Of a DNA stretch of 64,000 bases, positions 26,912 through 62,250 are shown piece by piece. The stretch is from the NCBI GenBank assembly GCA_002773535.1, contig PFAZ01000001.1, positions 154,806-218,805 on the forward strand. The letters are read 5' to 3'. Within the stretch, counting starts at the first letter, position 1. Each line of letters begins with the position of its first letter. Under the pieces are notes generated by a model, which saw only the letters and a list, made by a program, of their open reading frames with translations, had not been told where the DNA came from and made no database searches. A program made the translations under genes and the position numbers. The DNA comes from Candidatus Harrisonbacteria bacterium CG10_big_fil_rev_8_21_14_0_10_40_38. Its GTDB lineage: Bacteria > Patescibacteriota > Minisyncoccia > UBA6257 > 1-14-0-10-40-38.

Positions 26912-27091
26912 AATGTAGGTCAGACAGACTCGAAAGAGGTTCAGATAAAAAGTAATTGATTAATGATACGAACGACCTCGGGAAACTCCCAAGGCCGGTT
27001 AAACCTATACAATTGAGAAAGTTAGACAAGAACATTGTAGCAAATGACACTCAACTTGTCAATACAACTCAAAAAACACATATTTTATATA

Positions 27092-27127
27092 AAAAAGAGC
27101 CCTGTTCCGAAAGATCGGAACAGGGCT
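27092..27127 (-). terminator. rho-independent terminator for the GC-rich gene
   Basis: GCCCTGTTCCGatctttCGGAACAGGGC 11-bp stem followed on the minus strand by TCTTTTTTA. Confidence 0.55.
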
Positions 27128-27338
27128 AAGCCTGCCTGTCGGCAGACAGGTCCCGAGAGTCTTAGGATTGAGAACCGACTTGCGACGCGACGAACGCGAA
27201 CCCGCTACCATGACCCCACCCGTCGAAAGACCGCCCGTTGCACGCATGGAGCCAGCGACCACCGTCGTGACGGCTAGAGCGCAGCAAGACCGGACCGCCG
27301 CCGGAGTCATTGATGGGTTCGTGCATTGCGACGATCCA

Positions 27339-27803
27339 TCAGAGACCCATGGCTTTGATCTCCTTGTCTGCGAACTTCTCACGAATGAGGCAGGCCAATT
27401 CGGCATTCGGTTTTGGCAACTTGCGCTTGGCGGCCTCGGCGCGAATCTTCTTCGTGACCCGATTGTTGTACTTAAAGAGACAGCCCAGAAGAACGGCGAC
27501 TTCGGTCGTGAGGCCCTTGGTTGGCTTGAAGCCCGACGAACGGAGCACCTGCTTGGCGGAGTCACCTATGCGGAAGCCGTTGCCTTCCAGACGCTTGATC
27601 CAGTCCTCGCCGGTCGTGCCGTCCGAGGTGACCGAGAAGTAGATGACACTGTCTTCCTTGCGCCATTTTCGTTTTTGTTCAGAAACCACAAGATCACCAC
27701 GAAGGAGTTGATCAACTCCTTCCTCGCCACCGAGAATGTTCCACACGGCCTGAATGCGATCCACGGTTCTGTTGTTCTTTGCCACTTTGTCCTCCTTGCT
27801 CAT
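27339..27803 (-). CDS. hypothetical protein encoded in a high-GC insert
   Basis: About 154 codons with strongly G/C-biased third positions, e.g. GGC GAG GAC TGG ATC AAG CGT CTG, unlike the host genes. Opposite-strand shadow ORFs in the ORF track are the usual artefact of high-GC DNA. Confidence 0.5.
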   Translation of the reverse strand: MSKEDKVAKNNRTVDRIQAVWNILGGEEGVDQLLRGDLVVSEQKRKWRKEDSVIYFSVTSDGTTGEDWIKRLEGNGFRIGDSAKQVLRSSGFKPTKGLTTEVAVLLGCLFKYNNRVTKKIRAEAAKRKLPKPNAELACLIREKFADKEIKAMGL

Positions 27804-28066
27804 ATAGAGCACTTAGGTTAAGTCTCTGCTCGTATAGAGCAGAGACACTGGACAGGTTTAGTCACAGCCAGAAAATGCTAAATTTCAAAGTCGCAAGTAA
27901 GCACCATTTGGCTGTGACTAAATATTTCTCAAGTTTTTTAAAGTACTAAAGTACACACAAAAGAATATAATAATAATTCATATCTGTCAAATTAATCCAC
28001 AAATTTGACTTAACAAAATCATGCTTGCATAGTACTCAAACTAGTCATATCATCAATAGACATACT

Positions 28067-52081: not shown

Positions 52082-52900
52082 TTACAAAGGGCTCTTAATA
52101 TTTTTTAATCGTGGGTTTGTTACCTGCGCATATACTTGAGTTGTCCTTATACTGCTATGTCCAAGTAGCTCCTGTACATACCGAACATCTGTCCCATTTT
52201 CCAACAAATGAGTAGCAAAAGAGTGTCGTAAAGAATGAAACGTTGCGGGTTTGATAACTTTTGCCCCCACCAAACTTTTACGAAACATTTTTTGTAAAGA
52301 TGTAGCTGTTAGTTTACCGCCACGATTAGAGGAAAAAATAAAATCATCGGCACGTTTTCCCGCAATGATATTACGGAGGGAATCTTGCAGTTTTTCCGAC
52401 ATAACGCTGATCCGGTCTTTTTTACCTTTTGCTCCTTTGATATACACGGTGAATTCGTCAATACTTAGATCGGCGACTTTTAACTGCACAACTTCGCTTA
52501 CCCGCAGTCCGGACGCGTAACTCAAGGCGATCATTATCCGATATTTTGCGTTTTCGGTGGCGTTGATAATTTTCTCAATTTCTGCCCGCGACAACACGAT
52601 TGGTAGTTTTTTATTTTTTTTTGCAAATTTTAGGTCAATCTTCTGCGGATCTTTTAAAACTTCTGCATATAAAAATTTTACCGCGTTAAGTGCAAGGTTG
52701 ATTGTCTGCGGAGATTGTCCACGTTTGTGTTTATCAAGTAAAAATTCCTCAATTGCTTTTTGTTTGTCTTTGACTCCTTCTCTCTTAGAAAAGCTGATAT
52801 ACTCCTTTATGTAGAGCATGTATGCGTTGCGGGTCTTTAGGGAGTAGTTGCGGAGCCTCAAAACCCGCTCGGTCTTATCCAAAATATTCTCCATAAACAA
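52082..52900 (-). CDS. tyrosine recombinase (XerC/XerD/phage-integrase family)
   Basis: C-terminal catalytic box HSLRHSFATHLLENGTDVRYVQELLGHSSIRTTQVYAQV (R...HxxR...Y). Confidence 0.85.
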   Translation of the reverse strand: MFMENILDKTERVLRLRNYSLKTRNAYMLYIKEYISFSKREGVKDKQKAIEEFLLDKHKRGQSPQTINLALNAVKFLYAEVLKDPQKIDLKFAKKNKKLPIVLSRAEIEKIINATENAKYRIMIALSYASGLRVSEVVQLKVADLSIDEFTVYIKGAKGKKDRISVMSEKLQDSLRNIIAGKRADDFIFSSNRGGKLTATSLQKMFRKSLVGAKVIKPATFHSLRHSFATHLLENGTDVRYVQELLGHSSIRTTQVYAQVTNPRLKNIKSPL

Positions 52901-53093
52901 AGAATAGCAAAAGTTTGCATAACAAACAAGATATTGTTACAAAATAGGTTTGTAGTTCGGATAAAAACCAGTTGTACGAAATTCCGACTAGTAAATGAAG
53001 TGGTTTGAAAGTTTGTGCAAACAAAAAAGCACGTCTTTGAAACAAACTTCTATTAGTAACCCGTCGGAACTGTCGTACAACACTGTGTATCTG

Positions 53094-53633
53094 GTTCCAC
53101 AAATGAGAAATTCTTGATTATTTTTTTACATTTTGATTGGGCTTTTTACAATTTTTGCTCTCAAAAAGAAAAAGGCCACCGATGTTACTCGATGGCCTTG
53201 GGTTGGGATCTGCTCGTGGCGGGCGGGCGGCTCACCACATCTCGTCCATCTCCCGCTGGGCGAGCCTGTTCGCGGGGATGAGTCCCCACTCCTCGGGCAT
53301 GTCGTCTCCGACGTCCAGCCCGGGGCAGTCGGGCTTCTCGACAAAGATGTGTTTGCCATTGACCTCGCGAACGAGGCCGCCACCTTGGGTTCCCCAGACG
53401 GGGTAGCTGTAGGTACGATCCGTGCTCATGTCGATCCTCCTCGAGGGTTTGTGAAAGAGCAGATCCCGCCAACAGCGAGAGTCTGACCTTTCGGGTGAAA
53501 AGTAGCTTCATGCACTGTTGAACTCTAAATAATAGCATTTTTGAGAGCGTCTGTCAATAGTCCAGCAACACAAAAATTGCAAAAAGCCCTAAATTAAGGT
53601 AAAATAATCAAGAATTTCTCATTTGTTTCACCC
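53094..53633. mobile_element. TIR-bounded ~540-bp cassette with high-GC core (MITE-like passenger element or recombinase-associated invertible segment)
   Basis: Left end 53094-53157 and the reverse complement of right end 53571-53633 share ACAAATGAGAAATTCTTGATTATTTT (26/26) and GGGCTTTTT(A/G)CAATTTTTG. The interior, about 53160-53560, is strikingly GC-rich relative to the flanks. Confidence 0.45.
53232..53429 (-). CDS. 65-aa protein encoded in the high-GC core
   Basis: ATG preceded by a GAGGAGGATCGAC SD. Codons are almost all G/C-ending (MSTDRTYSYPVWGTQGGGLVREVNGKHIFVEKPDCPGLDVGDDMPEEWGLIPANRLAQREMDEMW). Confidence 0.5.
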   Translation of the reverse strand: MSTDRTYSYPVWGTQGGGLVREVNGKHIFVEKPDCPGLDVGDDMPEEWGLIPANRLAQREMDEMW

Positions 53634-53709
53634 AAATTTTGCTTCGTTTCACTCCGCAAAACTTCAGATACACAGGAACGTTATGCAAAATTCAGCTAAC
53701 CACGCAAAC

Positions 53710-60883: not shown

Positions 60884-61555
60884 TTAATAACTTGAATAAA
60901 GCGGCACTATATCGAGATCACCTTTCTGTGGCATACGAATCACATCGATAACTCTACCAAATATTCTATAATCGCGCTGAAGTATGATTGGTTTATATTG
61001 TGGATCCGAAGAAACCGGATGTAAAACTATTGCATTATTAGCAAACTGTATTTTTTTGATAACTGCGCAGTGATCAACGATAGTAACGACAAGATCATTA
61101 TCAGAAACTGCCTGTGTAAGCTCAACAAGAACATAGTCGCTATCACACACACCGGCATCAACCATCGAGTCTCCTATCGCCTTAATACTAACAACATCAT
61201 CACGCCTTTTGCCACACAATAAGTCACTTGCAACACAAATAAAATCTCCAAAATTTCTCTCGGCAAGAACAGACACATTATCACAACCAGCAGAAGCAAT
61301 TACGGGAATATTTACAGTCTCAACTGCATCCGCATATTCTCGTAGTCGAATCCCACGAGCCGCATGCTTCTCACGAAATATAAGACCTTTCTTTTCTAAT
61401 ACAGACAAATATTGCGTCACAGCCCTCGGAGAAGATAAGTTCATGCAGGCCATGAGTTCATTAGTCGTCGGCGACTCACCGGTCTCGATAATGTGTTTTC
61501 TAAGCGACTCATAAAATCTTCTTTGTTTTTGCGTAAGTTGCGCGACTAATGACAT
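60884..61555 (-). CDS. lexA: LexA repressor (S24 peptidase)
   Basis: N-terminal wHTH; Ala-Gly cleavage site (SAGCDN); GDSM Ser and a C-terminal Lys. Confidence 0.85.
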   Translation of the reverse strand: MSLVAQLTQKQRRFYESLRKHIIETGESPTTNELMACMNLSSPRAVTQYLSVLEKKGLIFREKHAARGIRLREYADAVETVNIPVIASAGCDNVSVLAERNFGDFICVASDLLCGKRRDDVVSIKAIGDSMVDAGVCDSDYVLVELTQAVSDNDLVVTIVDHCAVIKKIQFANNAIVLHPVSSDPQYKPIILQRDYRIFGRVIDVIRMPQKGDLDIVPLYSSY

Positions 61556-61649: not shown

Positions 61650-62250
61650 GTCCTCCCCGCACTCCCCTTCGGGATCGTGCGGGGTTTCCTTTAGGCTCCG
61701 CCACTCATGAGAATTCACCAGTTATCTCTTTTCCTCTATCAGCTATGTTTTGACGTTCAATATAGCGACGTATGGTTTCTTCGTTCAAGCCAACGGTAGA
61801 TACAAAGTATCCAGTACTCCACATATTTCCTTTTTCATATATCTGATCAATGAATTTGTACCGCTTCTTGAGTTCATGACTTGAGTATTGTTTTAACTTC
61901 TGTACGACTGAGGAAATGGCATATTTGGGTGGTATTTTCATGAGAATATGCACATGGTCATCACCTGTATTGATTTCATGAAAATACCAGTCTGGGTGGT
62001 AACGTCCTGTGCGGTACAAATTCTTGATCAGATCCGTACGAACATAGTGTTTGAGTATTTTTCTACGATATTTGGTCCCTCAGACTATATGATACTGAAT
62101 CTGATAAACACTGTGGTTTAACTGGCGAATTCTCATGCTAACAGCGTAGCACGCACCTGCGTGCTACGCTCATTCATCCCCGCACTGCGCTCTCTCATTT
62201 CAATAGATGTCTGTACCCTTGGTCGCGACGAGCTTGTGCGGGGTTTCCTG
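61650..62250 (-). mobile_element. IS200/IS605-family insertion sequence (tnpA only) with terminal hairpins
   Basis: Left hairpin CCCCGCAC...GTGCGGGG (61654-61682); 12-bp-stem hairpin AGCGTAGCACGC-acct-GCGTGCTACGCT (62143-62170); repeated GTGCGGGGTTTCCT at 61675 and 62236. Confidence 0.7.
61705..62136 (-). pseudogene. tnpA: IS200-type Y1 (HUH) transposase TnpA with an in-frame TGA replacing the conserved Trp
   Basis: Continuous frame from ATG 62136: MRIRQLNHSVYQIQYHIV-TGA-GTKYRRKILKHYV...GDDHVHILMKIPPKY...WSTGYFVSTVG...IRRYIERQ. The HUH motif and catalytic Tyr are intact. TGA lies at 62079-62081. Confidence 0.7.

Follow-up and report, generated by a model that had tools for sequence, protein, structure and literature searches.

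The contig PFAZ01000001.1 of Candidatus Harrisonbacteria bacterium CG10_big_fil_rev_8_21_14_0_10_40_38 contains, in the 64-kb stretch analysed here (positions 154,806 to 218,805; henceforth the window, in whose positions all coordinates are given), a 709-bp unit at 52972..53680 of the plus strand which probably represents an integron-like gene cassette lying beside its recombinase, with a 65-codon gene housed in the loop of the P2 helix of the recombination site. Comparison with 57 fetched metagenomic and genome loci (designated by L-numbers) established the anatomy of the locus, the covariation in the P1 and P2 helices of the site, the exact break points at G|TT, the complementarity between cassette starts and their own R'' boxes and the shuffling of cassettes. 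A preliminary description of the same DNA had seen in positions 53094-53633 a miniature transposon-like element, in which two ~63-bp terminal inverted repeats (TIRs) bracket a foreign gene of high GC content. The unit is indeed a small cassette without a mobility gene of its own and repeats are found at those coordinates, but its true extent is 52972-53680, because the sequence common to other copies runs past the limits first given.

The left boundary of the cassette is set by the primary attachment site (attI-like; 52895..52971, plus strand), which includes TTTGCATAAC at 52914-52923, ends at the crossover G at 52971 and is conserved in 13 loci, namely the window, L041 and eleven further loci with orthologous recombinases. 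Upstream of the recombinases, these loci share a sequence conserved as far as ...AAAAAC(C/G)A-G|TT, at which point the conservation stops exactly and the sequences diverge, the continuations after G|TT being TTGTACGA, TTAGCTGA, TTATATTC, TTATACGC, TTGTGCAA, TTGTGCGA, TTAGGCGA and TTATATGA. The window and L041, whose recombinase orthologue shows 80% amino acid identity to that of the window, agree to ...GATAAAAAC(C/G)A-G|TT and then proceed with TTGTACGAAAT... in the former and with TTAGCTGAAAT... and an HD-domain open reading frame (ORF) in the latter. Similarly, an identical recombinase protein and the same downstream genes are found in L051, L052 and L053, together with different first cassettes.

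The cassette starts all conform to TTRNNN(GA)AAT, and the ...N'N'N'YAAC box (R'') downstream of each start is complementary to it. In the window cassette, which runs from TTGTACGAAAT... to ...GAACG, the start TTGTACGA (52972) is complementary at 8/8 positions to its own R'' TCGTACAA (53073-53080), and the initial 8-9 nt are complementary to the cassette's own R'' (8-9/9) in about 20 cassettes, across 13 to about 1700 nt, while spurious pairs matched by the regular expression agree at only 0-3/6 positions. Circularisation of cassettes and their recombination at G|TT would be expected to leave such a footprint. At the right end, alignment of the copies places the cassette boundary at GAAC followed by the crossover G (53676..53680, plus strand), beyond which lies TTATGCAAAAT (53681..53691, plus strand), the distal half of a split attachment site recognised by its complementarity to TTTGCATAAC. 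The junction GTTATGCAAA (53680-53689; G|TTATGCAAA) is a 10/10 complement of TTTGCATAAC, and the two halves are therefore taken to be one site split by cassette insertion. The split-site pair at the far end of a three-cassette array in L048 matches at 9/10 positions.

Arrays of three or four cassettes, with one ORF and one site each, are present in L041, L039, L046 and L048, and their ORFs code for HD-domain, deaminase-like, hydrolase, SRPBCC-like, MazG and HicA-like proteins, the last of these in L046. One and the same cassette comes first after the attachment site in L055 and stands behind another cassette in L038. The junctions have only GTT in common, and a classical two-strand exchange, with its identical overlap of 6-8 bp, is therefore unlikely; by analogy with integrons, single-strand exchange on a folded site would be the economical explanation. 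A weak resemblance to a promoter, TTACAA-N17-GATAAA, with TATAAA as the second element in other lineages, was discerned by eye inside the attachment site (52938-52966) and does not satisfy the rules of the promoter scanner; it points into the cassettes and could be a counterpart of the integron Pc promoter. The cassette body itself (52972..53072, plus strand) is free of ORFs, forms a hairpin, GTTGTACGAAATTCCGAC...GTCGGAACTGTCGTACAAC, and recurs over its ~100 nt with 83-92% identity in L033, L038 and L040, three contigs whose loop genes differ; a small RNA and a remnant are both conceivable. One independent assembly of the locus (L027, JGI 3300004209) ends at the equivalent of window position 53067, inside the cassette body and just before R'', which may reflect strain variation at the locus.

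The recombination site at the end of the cassette is built as a three-way junction. The consensus of the sites reads ...ACATC NNN YAAC, A, P1 (12 nt), TTC, P2, T CACCCAAATT, P3, AACTT, P1', RAAC and GTTR NNN GAAAT..., and the site in the window follows on the plus strand with R'' (...YAAC), A, P1, GGTTC, P2, TCACCCAAATT, P3, AACTT, P1', RAAC and G|TT. Its parts, all on the plus strand, comprise the R''-like box TCGTACAAC (53073..53081; inverse core), evident in the sequence and in the alignment of 13 sites, the 5' strand of P1, CTGTGTATCTGG (53083..53094), which pairs with the 3' strand TCAGATACACAG (53664..53675), the conserved junction strand TTCACCCAAATTT (53627..53639), with 23 right-end motif matches among the fetched loci, and the P3 side hairpin (53640..53659), whose stem sequences vary by site and still form in minimum free energy (MFE) folds. 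In the core boxes, AAC and GTT are nearly invariant; many boxes match RYYYAAC/GTTRRRY (GCCTAAC/GTTAGGC, GTCTAAC/GTTAGAC) and others only GTTRNNY (GTTATAC, GTTGTAC).

Covariation lends support to these helices. Across the 13 sites, 98% of the cells in P1 are paired and two-sided changes occur in 9 of its 12 pairs (98-99% and 9-10 pairs over the alignments analysed), with a covariation score of 0.76 versus 0.19 in shuffles, a value reached by none of 500 shuffles. All six basal pairs of P2 covary as well, to a degree that 0/500 shuffles attain; one truncated row of an alignment, gapped on its 3' side, was set aside in the counts. The R box and P1 are analogous to elements of the canonical attC fold (R box, unpaired spacer, L box with extrahelical bases and variable terminal structure; 57-141 nt), but the sites have an asymmetric 1-nt/4-nt spacer in a three-way junction, and those that carry no cargo measure 85-150 nt. 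In MFE folds of ten cargo-free sites the three-way junction is clear in seven and weaker in the three shortest. The inverted repeats of the window begin 1 nt past GGTTC and stop 2 nt short of CACCC, which is the position of P2 in the small sites, and they are therefore interpreted as the arms of an unusually long P2 stem with the gene in its loop. The 5' arm, the left repeat of the preliminary description, occupies 53099..53167 of the plus strand, where the cargo-less sites have their short P2 hairpin, while the 3' arm (53538..53626, plus strand), delimited by inverted-repeat pairing and by the fold, unites the right repeat at 53571-53626 with an inner extension at 53538-53548. Folded as single-stranded DNA, positions 53073-53689 yield -130 kcal/mol versus -78 (standard deviation 4.9) for shuffles (z = -10.7), in a structure that contains P1, P2 and P3.

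Helices that covary around conserved junction strands would also be expected of an element acting as RNA, be it a small RNA, a ribozyme-like motif or an mRNA-stabilising repeat, with the repeats as RNA stems, and the innermost P1 pair is indeed a G-T, which pairs on one strand only, in 12 of the 13 sites. This explanation is nonetheless improbable, given that the loop gene has its promoter and terminator inside the arms and its transcript hence leaves out P1, P3 and the greater part of P2, that the site has no match in Rfam in its small or in its large versions, and that neither the G|TT break points nor the complementarity between start and R'' is explained by it.

The arms themselves largely agree with what had been reported of the ~63-bp ends. 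Positions 53099-53124 and 53601-53626 form a 26/26 complementary inverted repeat, which continues beyond the 26-mer with imperfect pairing (38 nt at 79%) to 53157/53571 and, when gaps are allowed (about 58-69 nt), to 53167/53538 by way of GCTCTCAAAAA. No further copy of the 26-mer exists in the window, and 100 shuffles gave 0 matches. Two nested inverted repeats lie inside the loop, at 53157-53167/53538-53548 (GCTCTCAAAAA) and at 53207-53217/53460-53470 (GGGATCTGCTC), the second of which would pair the 5' untranslated region (UTR) of the loop-gene mRNA with its 3'UTR. The reported rise in GC content was likewise borne out, with 0.665 at 53200-53399 against 0.35-0.40 in the flanks, and the GC content at third codon positions (GC3) of the ORF is 0.82 as compared to a mean of 0.34 (standard deviation 0.06) for 45 long ORFs of the window. 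So abrupt a jump might suggest a chimeric assembly or high-GC contamination, to which next to no credence can be given, as four contigs from different samples agree with 99.97-100% identity across the locus and the arrangement is therefore not a chimera or an assembly artefact. Furthermore, the transition from the AT-rich promoter, terminator and arms to the GC-rich ORF is gradual, and the gene family is present in many genomes of the candidate phyla radiation (CPR).

Further copies of the arms with other cargo, a search for which had been proposed in the preliminary description, were retrieved with a 20-mer from the arm, which identified 18 metagenomic loci, 15 of them true relatives; L028, L042 and L044 were dropped as chance or degenerate matches. 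The 15 copies occupy different genomic contexts (two occur on the 3-kb contig L036), and share their arms and, without exception, an outer scaffold of P1, P3 and ...AAC/GTT... boxes. Their interiors are unrelated and comprise seven families of small genes with GC3 values of 0.62-0.95, all antisense to the array and each provided with a TTGACA promoter, GGAGG and terminator of its own. The similarity among the copies outruns the arms by ~20 nt on the left and ~65 nt on the right, to ...TAACA and GAACGTTA, and the arms are therefore not the ends of the unit. Three of the loop genes (in L030, L038 and L043) are unrelated ORFs with a common 5'UTR, made up of a hairpin (CAGAATT..ATTCTG) and then a GC stem, and this leader may constitute a module in its own right, either exchangeable or regulatory.

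Long inverted repeats around different cargo in 15 copies are also what would be expected of a miniature inverted-repeat transposable element (MITE) or mobile insertion cassette (MIC), that is, of a non-autonomous transposon with 58-nt TIRs which was mobilised by a trans-acting transposase and captured a gene, and the remnant of an IS200-type tnpA lies 8 kb away. Such an origin is very unlikely. The common sequence past the arms extends to the ...AAC and GTT... boxes, the arms show no target-site duplication, the sole repeat at the true ends being the AAC of the boxes, and the arms never occur without the same P1/P3 scaffold. In addition, the helices covary where a transposase would be expected to bind a fixed sequence. 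The preliminary description is correct in that neither the window nor the 57 fetched loci nor viral contigs yielded a transposase with such ends, the viral contigs also lacking copies of the arms and of the attachment-site motif, but a candidate recombinase is immediately adjacent. Its view of the repeats as MITE-like transposon ends is not supported, as the arms are an internal P2 helix in 15/15 copies and the boundaries are formed by G|TT beside the recombinase.

The IS200-type tnpA gene (61.7-62.1 kb) was considered as a mobiliser and ruled out, this family being without TIRs and the gene interrupted by an in-frame stop. Located on the minus strand at 61705-62100, it codes for a Y1 transposase with a TGA at the position of a conserved Trp (YHIV*GTKYRRK), is flanked by GC hairpins and is either a pseudogene or a case of recoding. 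Directly beside it is a gene for a LexA-like repressor (LexA_DNA_bind and Peptidase_S24; 60884-61555, minus strand); in classical integrons, LexA controls the integrase.

Inverted repeats adjoining a tyrosine recombinase could alternatively bound an invertible segment, flipped by the recombinase as a phase-variation switch. The orientation of the gene relative to the outer flanks is, however, identical in all 10 fully visible copies and in all four assemblies of the locus, and with a complete promoter-gene-terminator unit inside the repeats an inversion would change little, making a switch of this kind highly improbable.

The recombinase gene (52082..52894, minus strand) codes for a protein of 270 aa from an ATG at 52894, which is IntI/XerA-like, contains the Pfam domains Phage_integrase and Phage_int_SAM_4 and is the only tyrosine recombinase found in the window. 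Its best match in NCBIfam is the integron integrase TIGR02249 (209 bits, under the cutoff of 265) and its best match in the PDB is VchIntIA (2A3V; E 5.7e-45), followed by archaeal XerA (4A8E, 143 bits) and XerD. The alignment to VchIntIA falls into two pieces (12-206/11-210 and 197-272/242-317), between which ~30 residues (about 211-241 of VchIntIA) are skipped, and the IntI-specific insert is thus missing. This insert defines integron integrases and, in what is cited of an earlier study, is reported to be needed for activity (Messier and Roy 2001, as cited).

The recombinase might accordingly be a housekeeping dimer resolvase of the Xer type, the adjoining site dif-like and the cassettes exploiters which pile up there in the manner of integrative mobile elements exploiting Xer (IMEX). 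The break points would be the same as for an integron-like cassette, and the difference concerns the nature and origin of the system, this explanation being a variant of the same mechanism. Apart from the missing insert and the resemblance to XerA, it is favoured by the conservation of the recombinase family, with 77-83% identity over many CPR classes and >4345 relatives at E <= 1e-60, which could be that of a housekeeping Xer, by the location of the single gene among housekeeping genes and by an adjoining site that, as dif sites are, is conserved across lineages. On inspection, however, neither the attachment site nor the cassette ends showed an 11-6-11 dif-like dyad (28 bp) about their G|TT, the layout of the site is that of an R''...R' hairpin, the cassettes are mostly a single ORF with a structured site in arrays, unlike phages or islands, and the recombinase scores higher against IntI than against XerC, XerD or XerA. 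A housekeeping Xer system is therefore considered rather unlikely.

If the locus is an integron-like cassette, as preferred here, the adjacent recombinase would excise and insert cassettes as circles, by strand exchange on the folded single-stranded site in the manner of integron integrases, a form of mobility that is read throughout from comparative anatomy. The recombinase gene is transcribed away from the attachment site (52895-52971), at the G|TT of which the cassette would have been inserted, and the attC-like site at the end of the cassette would fold as a three-way junction. The long arms may keep this site foldable despite a loop of ~400 nt, and the loop gene, being self-expressed and antisense to the array, would be expressed independently of the position of the cassette in the array. 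Excision is predicted to give the circular junction ...CACAGGAACG|TTGTACGAAAT... (also written ...CAGATACACAGGAACG|TTGTACGAAATTCC...) and the restored empty site ...AAAAACCAG|TTATGCAAAAT... (also written ...GGATAAAAACCAG|TTATGCAAAATTC...).

Several observations weigh against this interpretation. Neither an excised circle nor an empty attachment site of this strain was seen in the contigs, and, as the other contigs with arms are too short, an arm-type cassette adjoining a recombinase can be seen in the window and L041 alone. The recombinase lacks the IntI-specific insert and could be a housekeeping Xer, and no extrahelical bases were identified in the sites, which are instead three-way junctions with conserved junction strands. 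To our knowledge, no integron attC with a gene in its hairpin loop has been described. The persistently high GC content of the loop genes finds no explanation in such a cassette system. In L001, L054 and L056, moreover, antisense genes flanked by inverted repeats are located in the cassette body and not in P2, suggesting that the arm-gene-arm module may have an independent life. In two of these loci (L054, 80-620, and L056, 80-575, both on the reverse complement), arms of 30-45 nt enclose small, self-promoted, GC-richer antisense genes in the body of the first cassette, coding for proteins of 89 aa (DUF7352) and 98 aa, respectively. The P2 loop of a cassette site in a Kerfeldbacteria array in L048 (1392-1981 on the reverse complement; also in L057) contains, between arms of 14 bp, a DpnI-like gene of 145 aa with ordinary GC content and the same direction as the array, and genes in hairpin loops are therefore not limited to GC-rich antisense ones. 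In each of these cases the gene is enclosed by long arms that close one of the helices of the folded cassette, and the arms may keep the site foldable.

The 65-codon ORF is a real protein-coding gene (53232..53429, minus strand), as indicated by the ORF scan, its relatives and the codon-position pattern. Besides the strong Shine-Dalgarno sequence pointed out in the preliminary description (GAGGAGGA, 53435..53442, minus strand, evident in the sequence), the gene has a promoter of its own at 53529..53557 on the minus strand, TTGACA-N17-TATTAT with a TG extension (near-consensus, 11/12 matches), a 5'UTR of ~95 nt and an intrinsic hairpin terminator predicted at 53172..53199 on the minus strand. 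There are 134 relatives with 58-80% identity, in which the protein core YPVWGTQGGGLVR..IFVEKPDCPGLDVGD.MPEEWG.IPAN is conserved, indels are in frame and codon position 3 takes 74% of the pairwise nucleotide differences. The third-position differences and in-frame indels, together with the lack of an Rfam match, rule out that the GC-rich core is a structured RNA miscalled as an ORF. Few of the relatives are named, and those that are belong to CPR lineages (Uhr-, Vogel-, Taylor- and Zambryskibacteria); likewise, the genome loci with this family are nearly all from metagenome-assembled genomes (MAGs) of CPR type, each copy being GC-richer than its host. A foreign gene from a high-GC donor, as first proposed, is not supported by this distribution. 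The protein, for which the preliminary description had suggested structure prediction, was modelled with good confidence by AlphaFold2 (AF2; predicted local distance difference test score, pLDDT, 89.7), but a fold search with the model gave no significant match.

Among the 23 genome loci of the loop-gene family (L001-L023), no conserved neighbours and no recombinase within 4 kb were found, which spoke initially against a link with the recombinase, and the link came solely from the copies of the arms. A search with the strict scaffold pattern around the loop-gene homologues in the same loci gave no match, and a diverged version of the scaffold near the homologue in L007 was discerned by eye. 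Many contigs with the 65-aa family or the recombinase (L001-L023 and those in the list of relatives) are very short or end near the gene, which is consistent with repeats or strain-variable arrays breaking assemblies. As regards the high GC content of the gene, codon bias linked to expression was ruled out, the genes for EF-G, S7 and S12 having GC3 values of only 0.30-0.37. Selection for a compact loop receives weak support from the loop interior, which folds alone slightly better than shuffles (z = -2.2), and biased gene conversion in a recombination hotspot is a possibility.

Integrons are the textbook bacterial system of gene capture and shuffling, their defining features being attC hairpins and an integrase that possesses a special domain. 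The locus resembles the sedentary chromosomal integrons, such as the Vibrio superintegron with its VCR attC sites, in the recombinase gene that diverges from the attachment site and the array of mostly single-ORF cassettes, in the G|TT crossover, the ...AAC/GTT... bounds and the cassette start that complements its own inverse core, and in near-identical sites within a population that accompany unrelated genes, among them toxin-antitoxin cassettes (HicA-like, L046). It differs from Vibrio-type integrons in the recombinase without the IntI-specific insert, in its CPR/Patescibacteria host, in sites that are three-way junctions with conserved strands (GGTTC, CACCCAAATT, AACTT) and a 12-bp P1, in a primary attachment site which itself has the R''...R' layout and in genes inside the hairpin loop of the site. 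The system thus behaves like a sedentary chromosomal integron and departs from the formal definition in the absent integrase insert and in sites unlike canonical attC. Integrons have been extended to mostly uncultured lineages by means of MAGs with those of archaea (Ghaly et al. 2022, PMC9668308), which show canonical attC folding and the additional IntI domain, neither of which the system in the window has in canonical form.

With IMEX such as the CTX phage, the locus has in common an Xer-type enzyme without the IntI insert, a conserved chromosomal site and tandem accumulation, and in the CTX phage a folded single-strand hairpin serves as the Xer substrate. Unlike IMEX, it has no dif-like 28-bp core, and its units are cassettes of 0.1-1.7 kb with a structured site rather than phages or islands. 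Like the MIC231 and Correia elements, the arm-bounded copies are small, non-autonomous and delimited by inverted repeats, and those elements sometimes have passenger genes or promoters; they possess, however, TIRs of the insertion sequence type and target duplications and depend on a DDE transposase, as opposed to the internal repeats and site-specific G|TT junctions of the window. The pdif modules of Acinetobacter are likewise small gene modules without a transposase of their own, located between inverted recombinase sites, but these are 28-bp XerC/XerD sites, none of which is present at the window cassette. Foreign DNA is also lodged inside attC sites by IS1111-attC elements and group IIC-attC introns, which are autonomous and encode their own enzyme, whereas the insert in the window is a plain promoter-gene-terminator unit.

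On a wider scale, it is suggested tentatively that the Patescibacteria (CPR) may harbour a widespread, unrecognised integron-type capture system, with a highly conserved IntI-like enzyme lacking the insert, three-way-junction sites and loops able to accommodate self-expressed, GC-rich antisense genes. The published literature searched contains no description of integrons or attC-like sites in the CPR. Such a system would endow symbionts with reduced genomes with a cassette system of their own for the exchange of accessory genes, and the IntI domain held to be essential would not be required for integron-style recombination. It would either connect the Xer recombinases with the integrases of integrons as a missing link or show that the integron principle was invented independently, and would bear on the origin of integrons from Xer-like enzymes. 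The sites would form a new structural class which standard attC models may miss, and could help to explain why 97% of the contigs with 'integron-type' recombinases in a 2026 study have no detectable attC (PMC13323075). A gene placed inside the hairpin of a recombination site would, furthermore, be a compact natural design of possible use in synthetic biology.

GC-rich genes were also encountered outside the P2 loops. In L032, a Cys-rich ORF of 279 aa (940-1779) with a GC content of ~0.6, its own consensus promoter and terminator and no Pfam match occupies an ordinary cassette position, with TTATGTGA as the start and TCACATAAC as the R''. A second GC-rich island of the window, at 27090-27990, shows no match in Pfam or PADLOC and no ...AAC/GTT... 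boxes were seen around it; it encodes an ORF of 157 aa (27339-27812, minus strand; GC3 0.68), whose own TTGACA-N17 promoter lies near 27988, whose 5'UTR is long and structured and whose terminator is a hairpin at 27093-27127.

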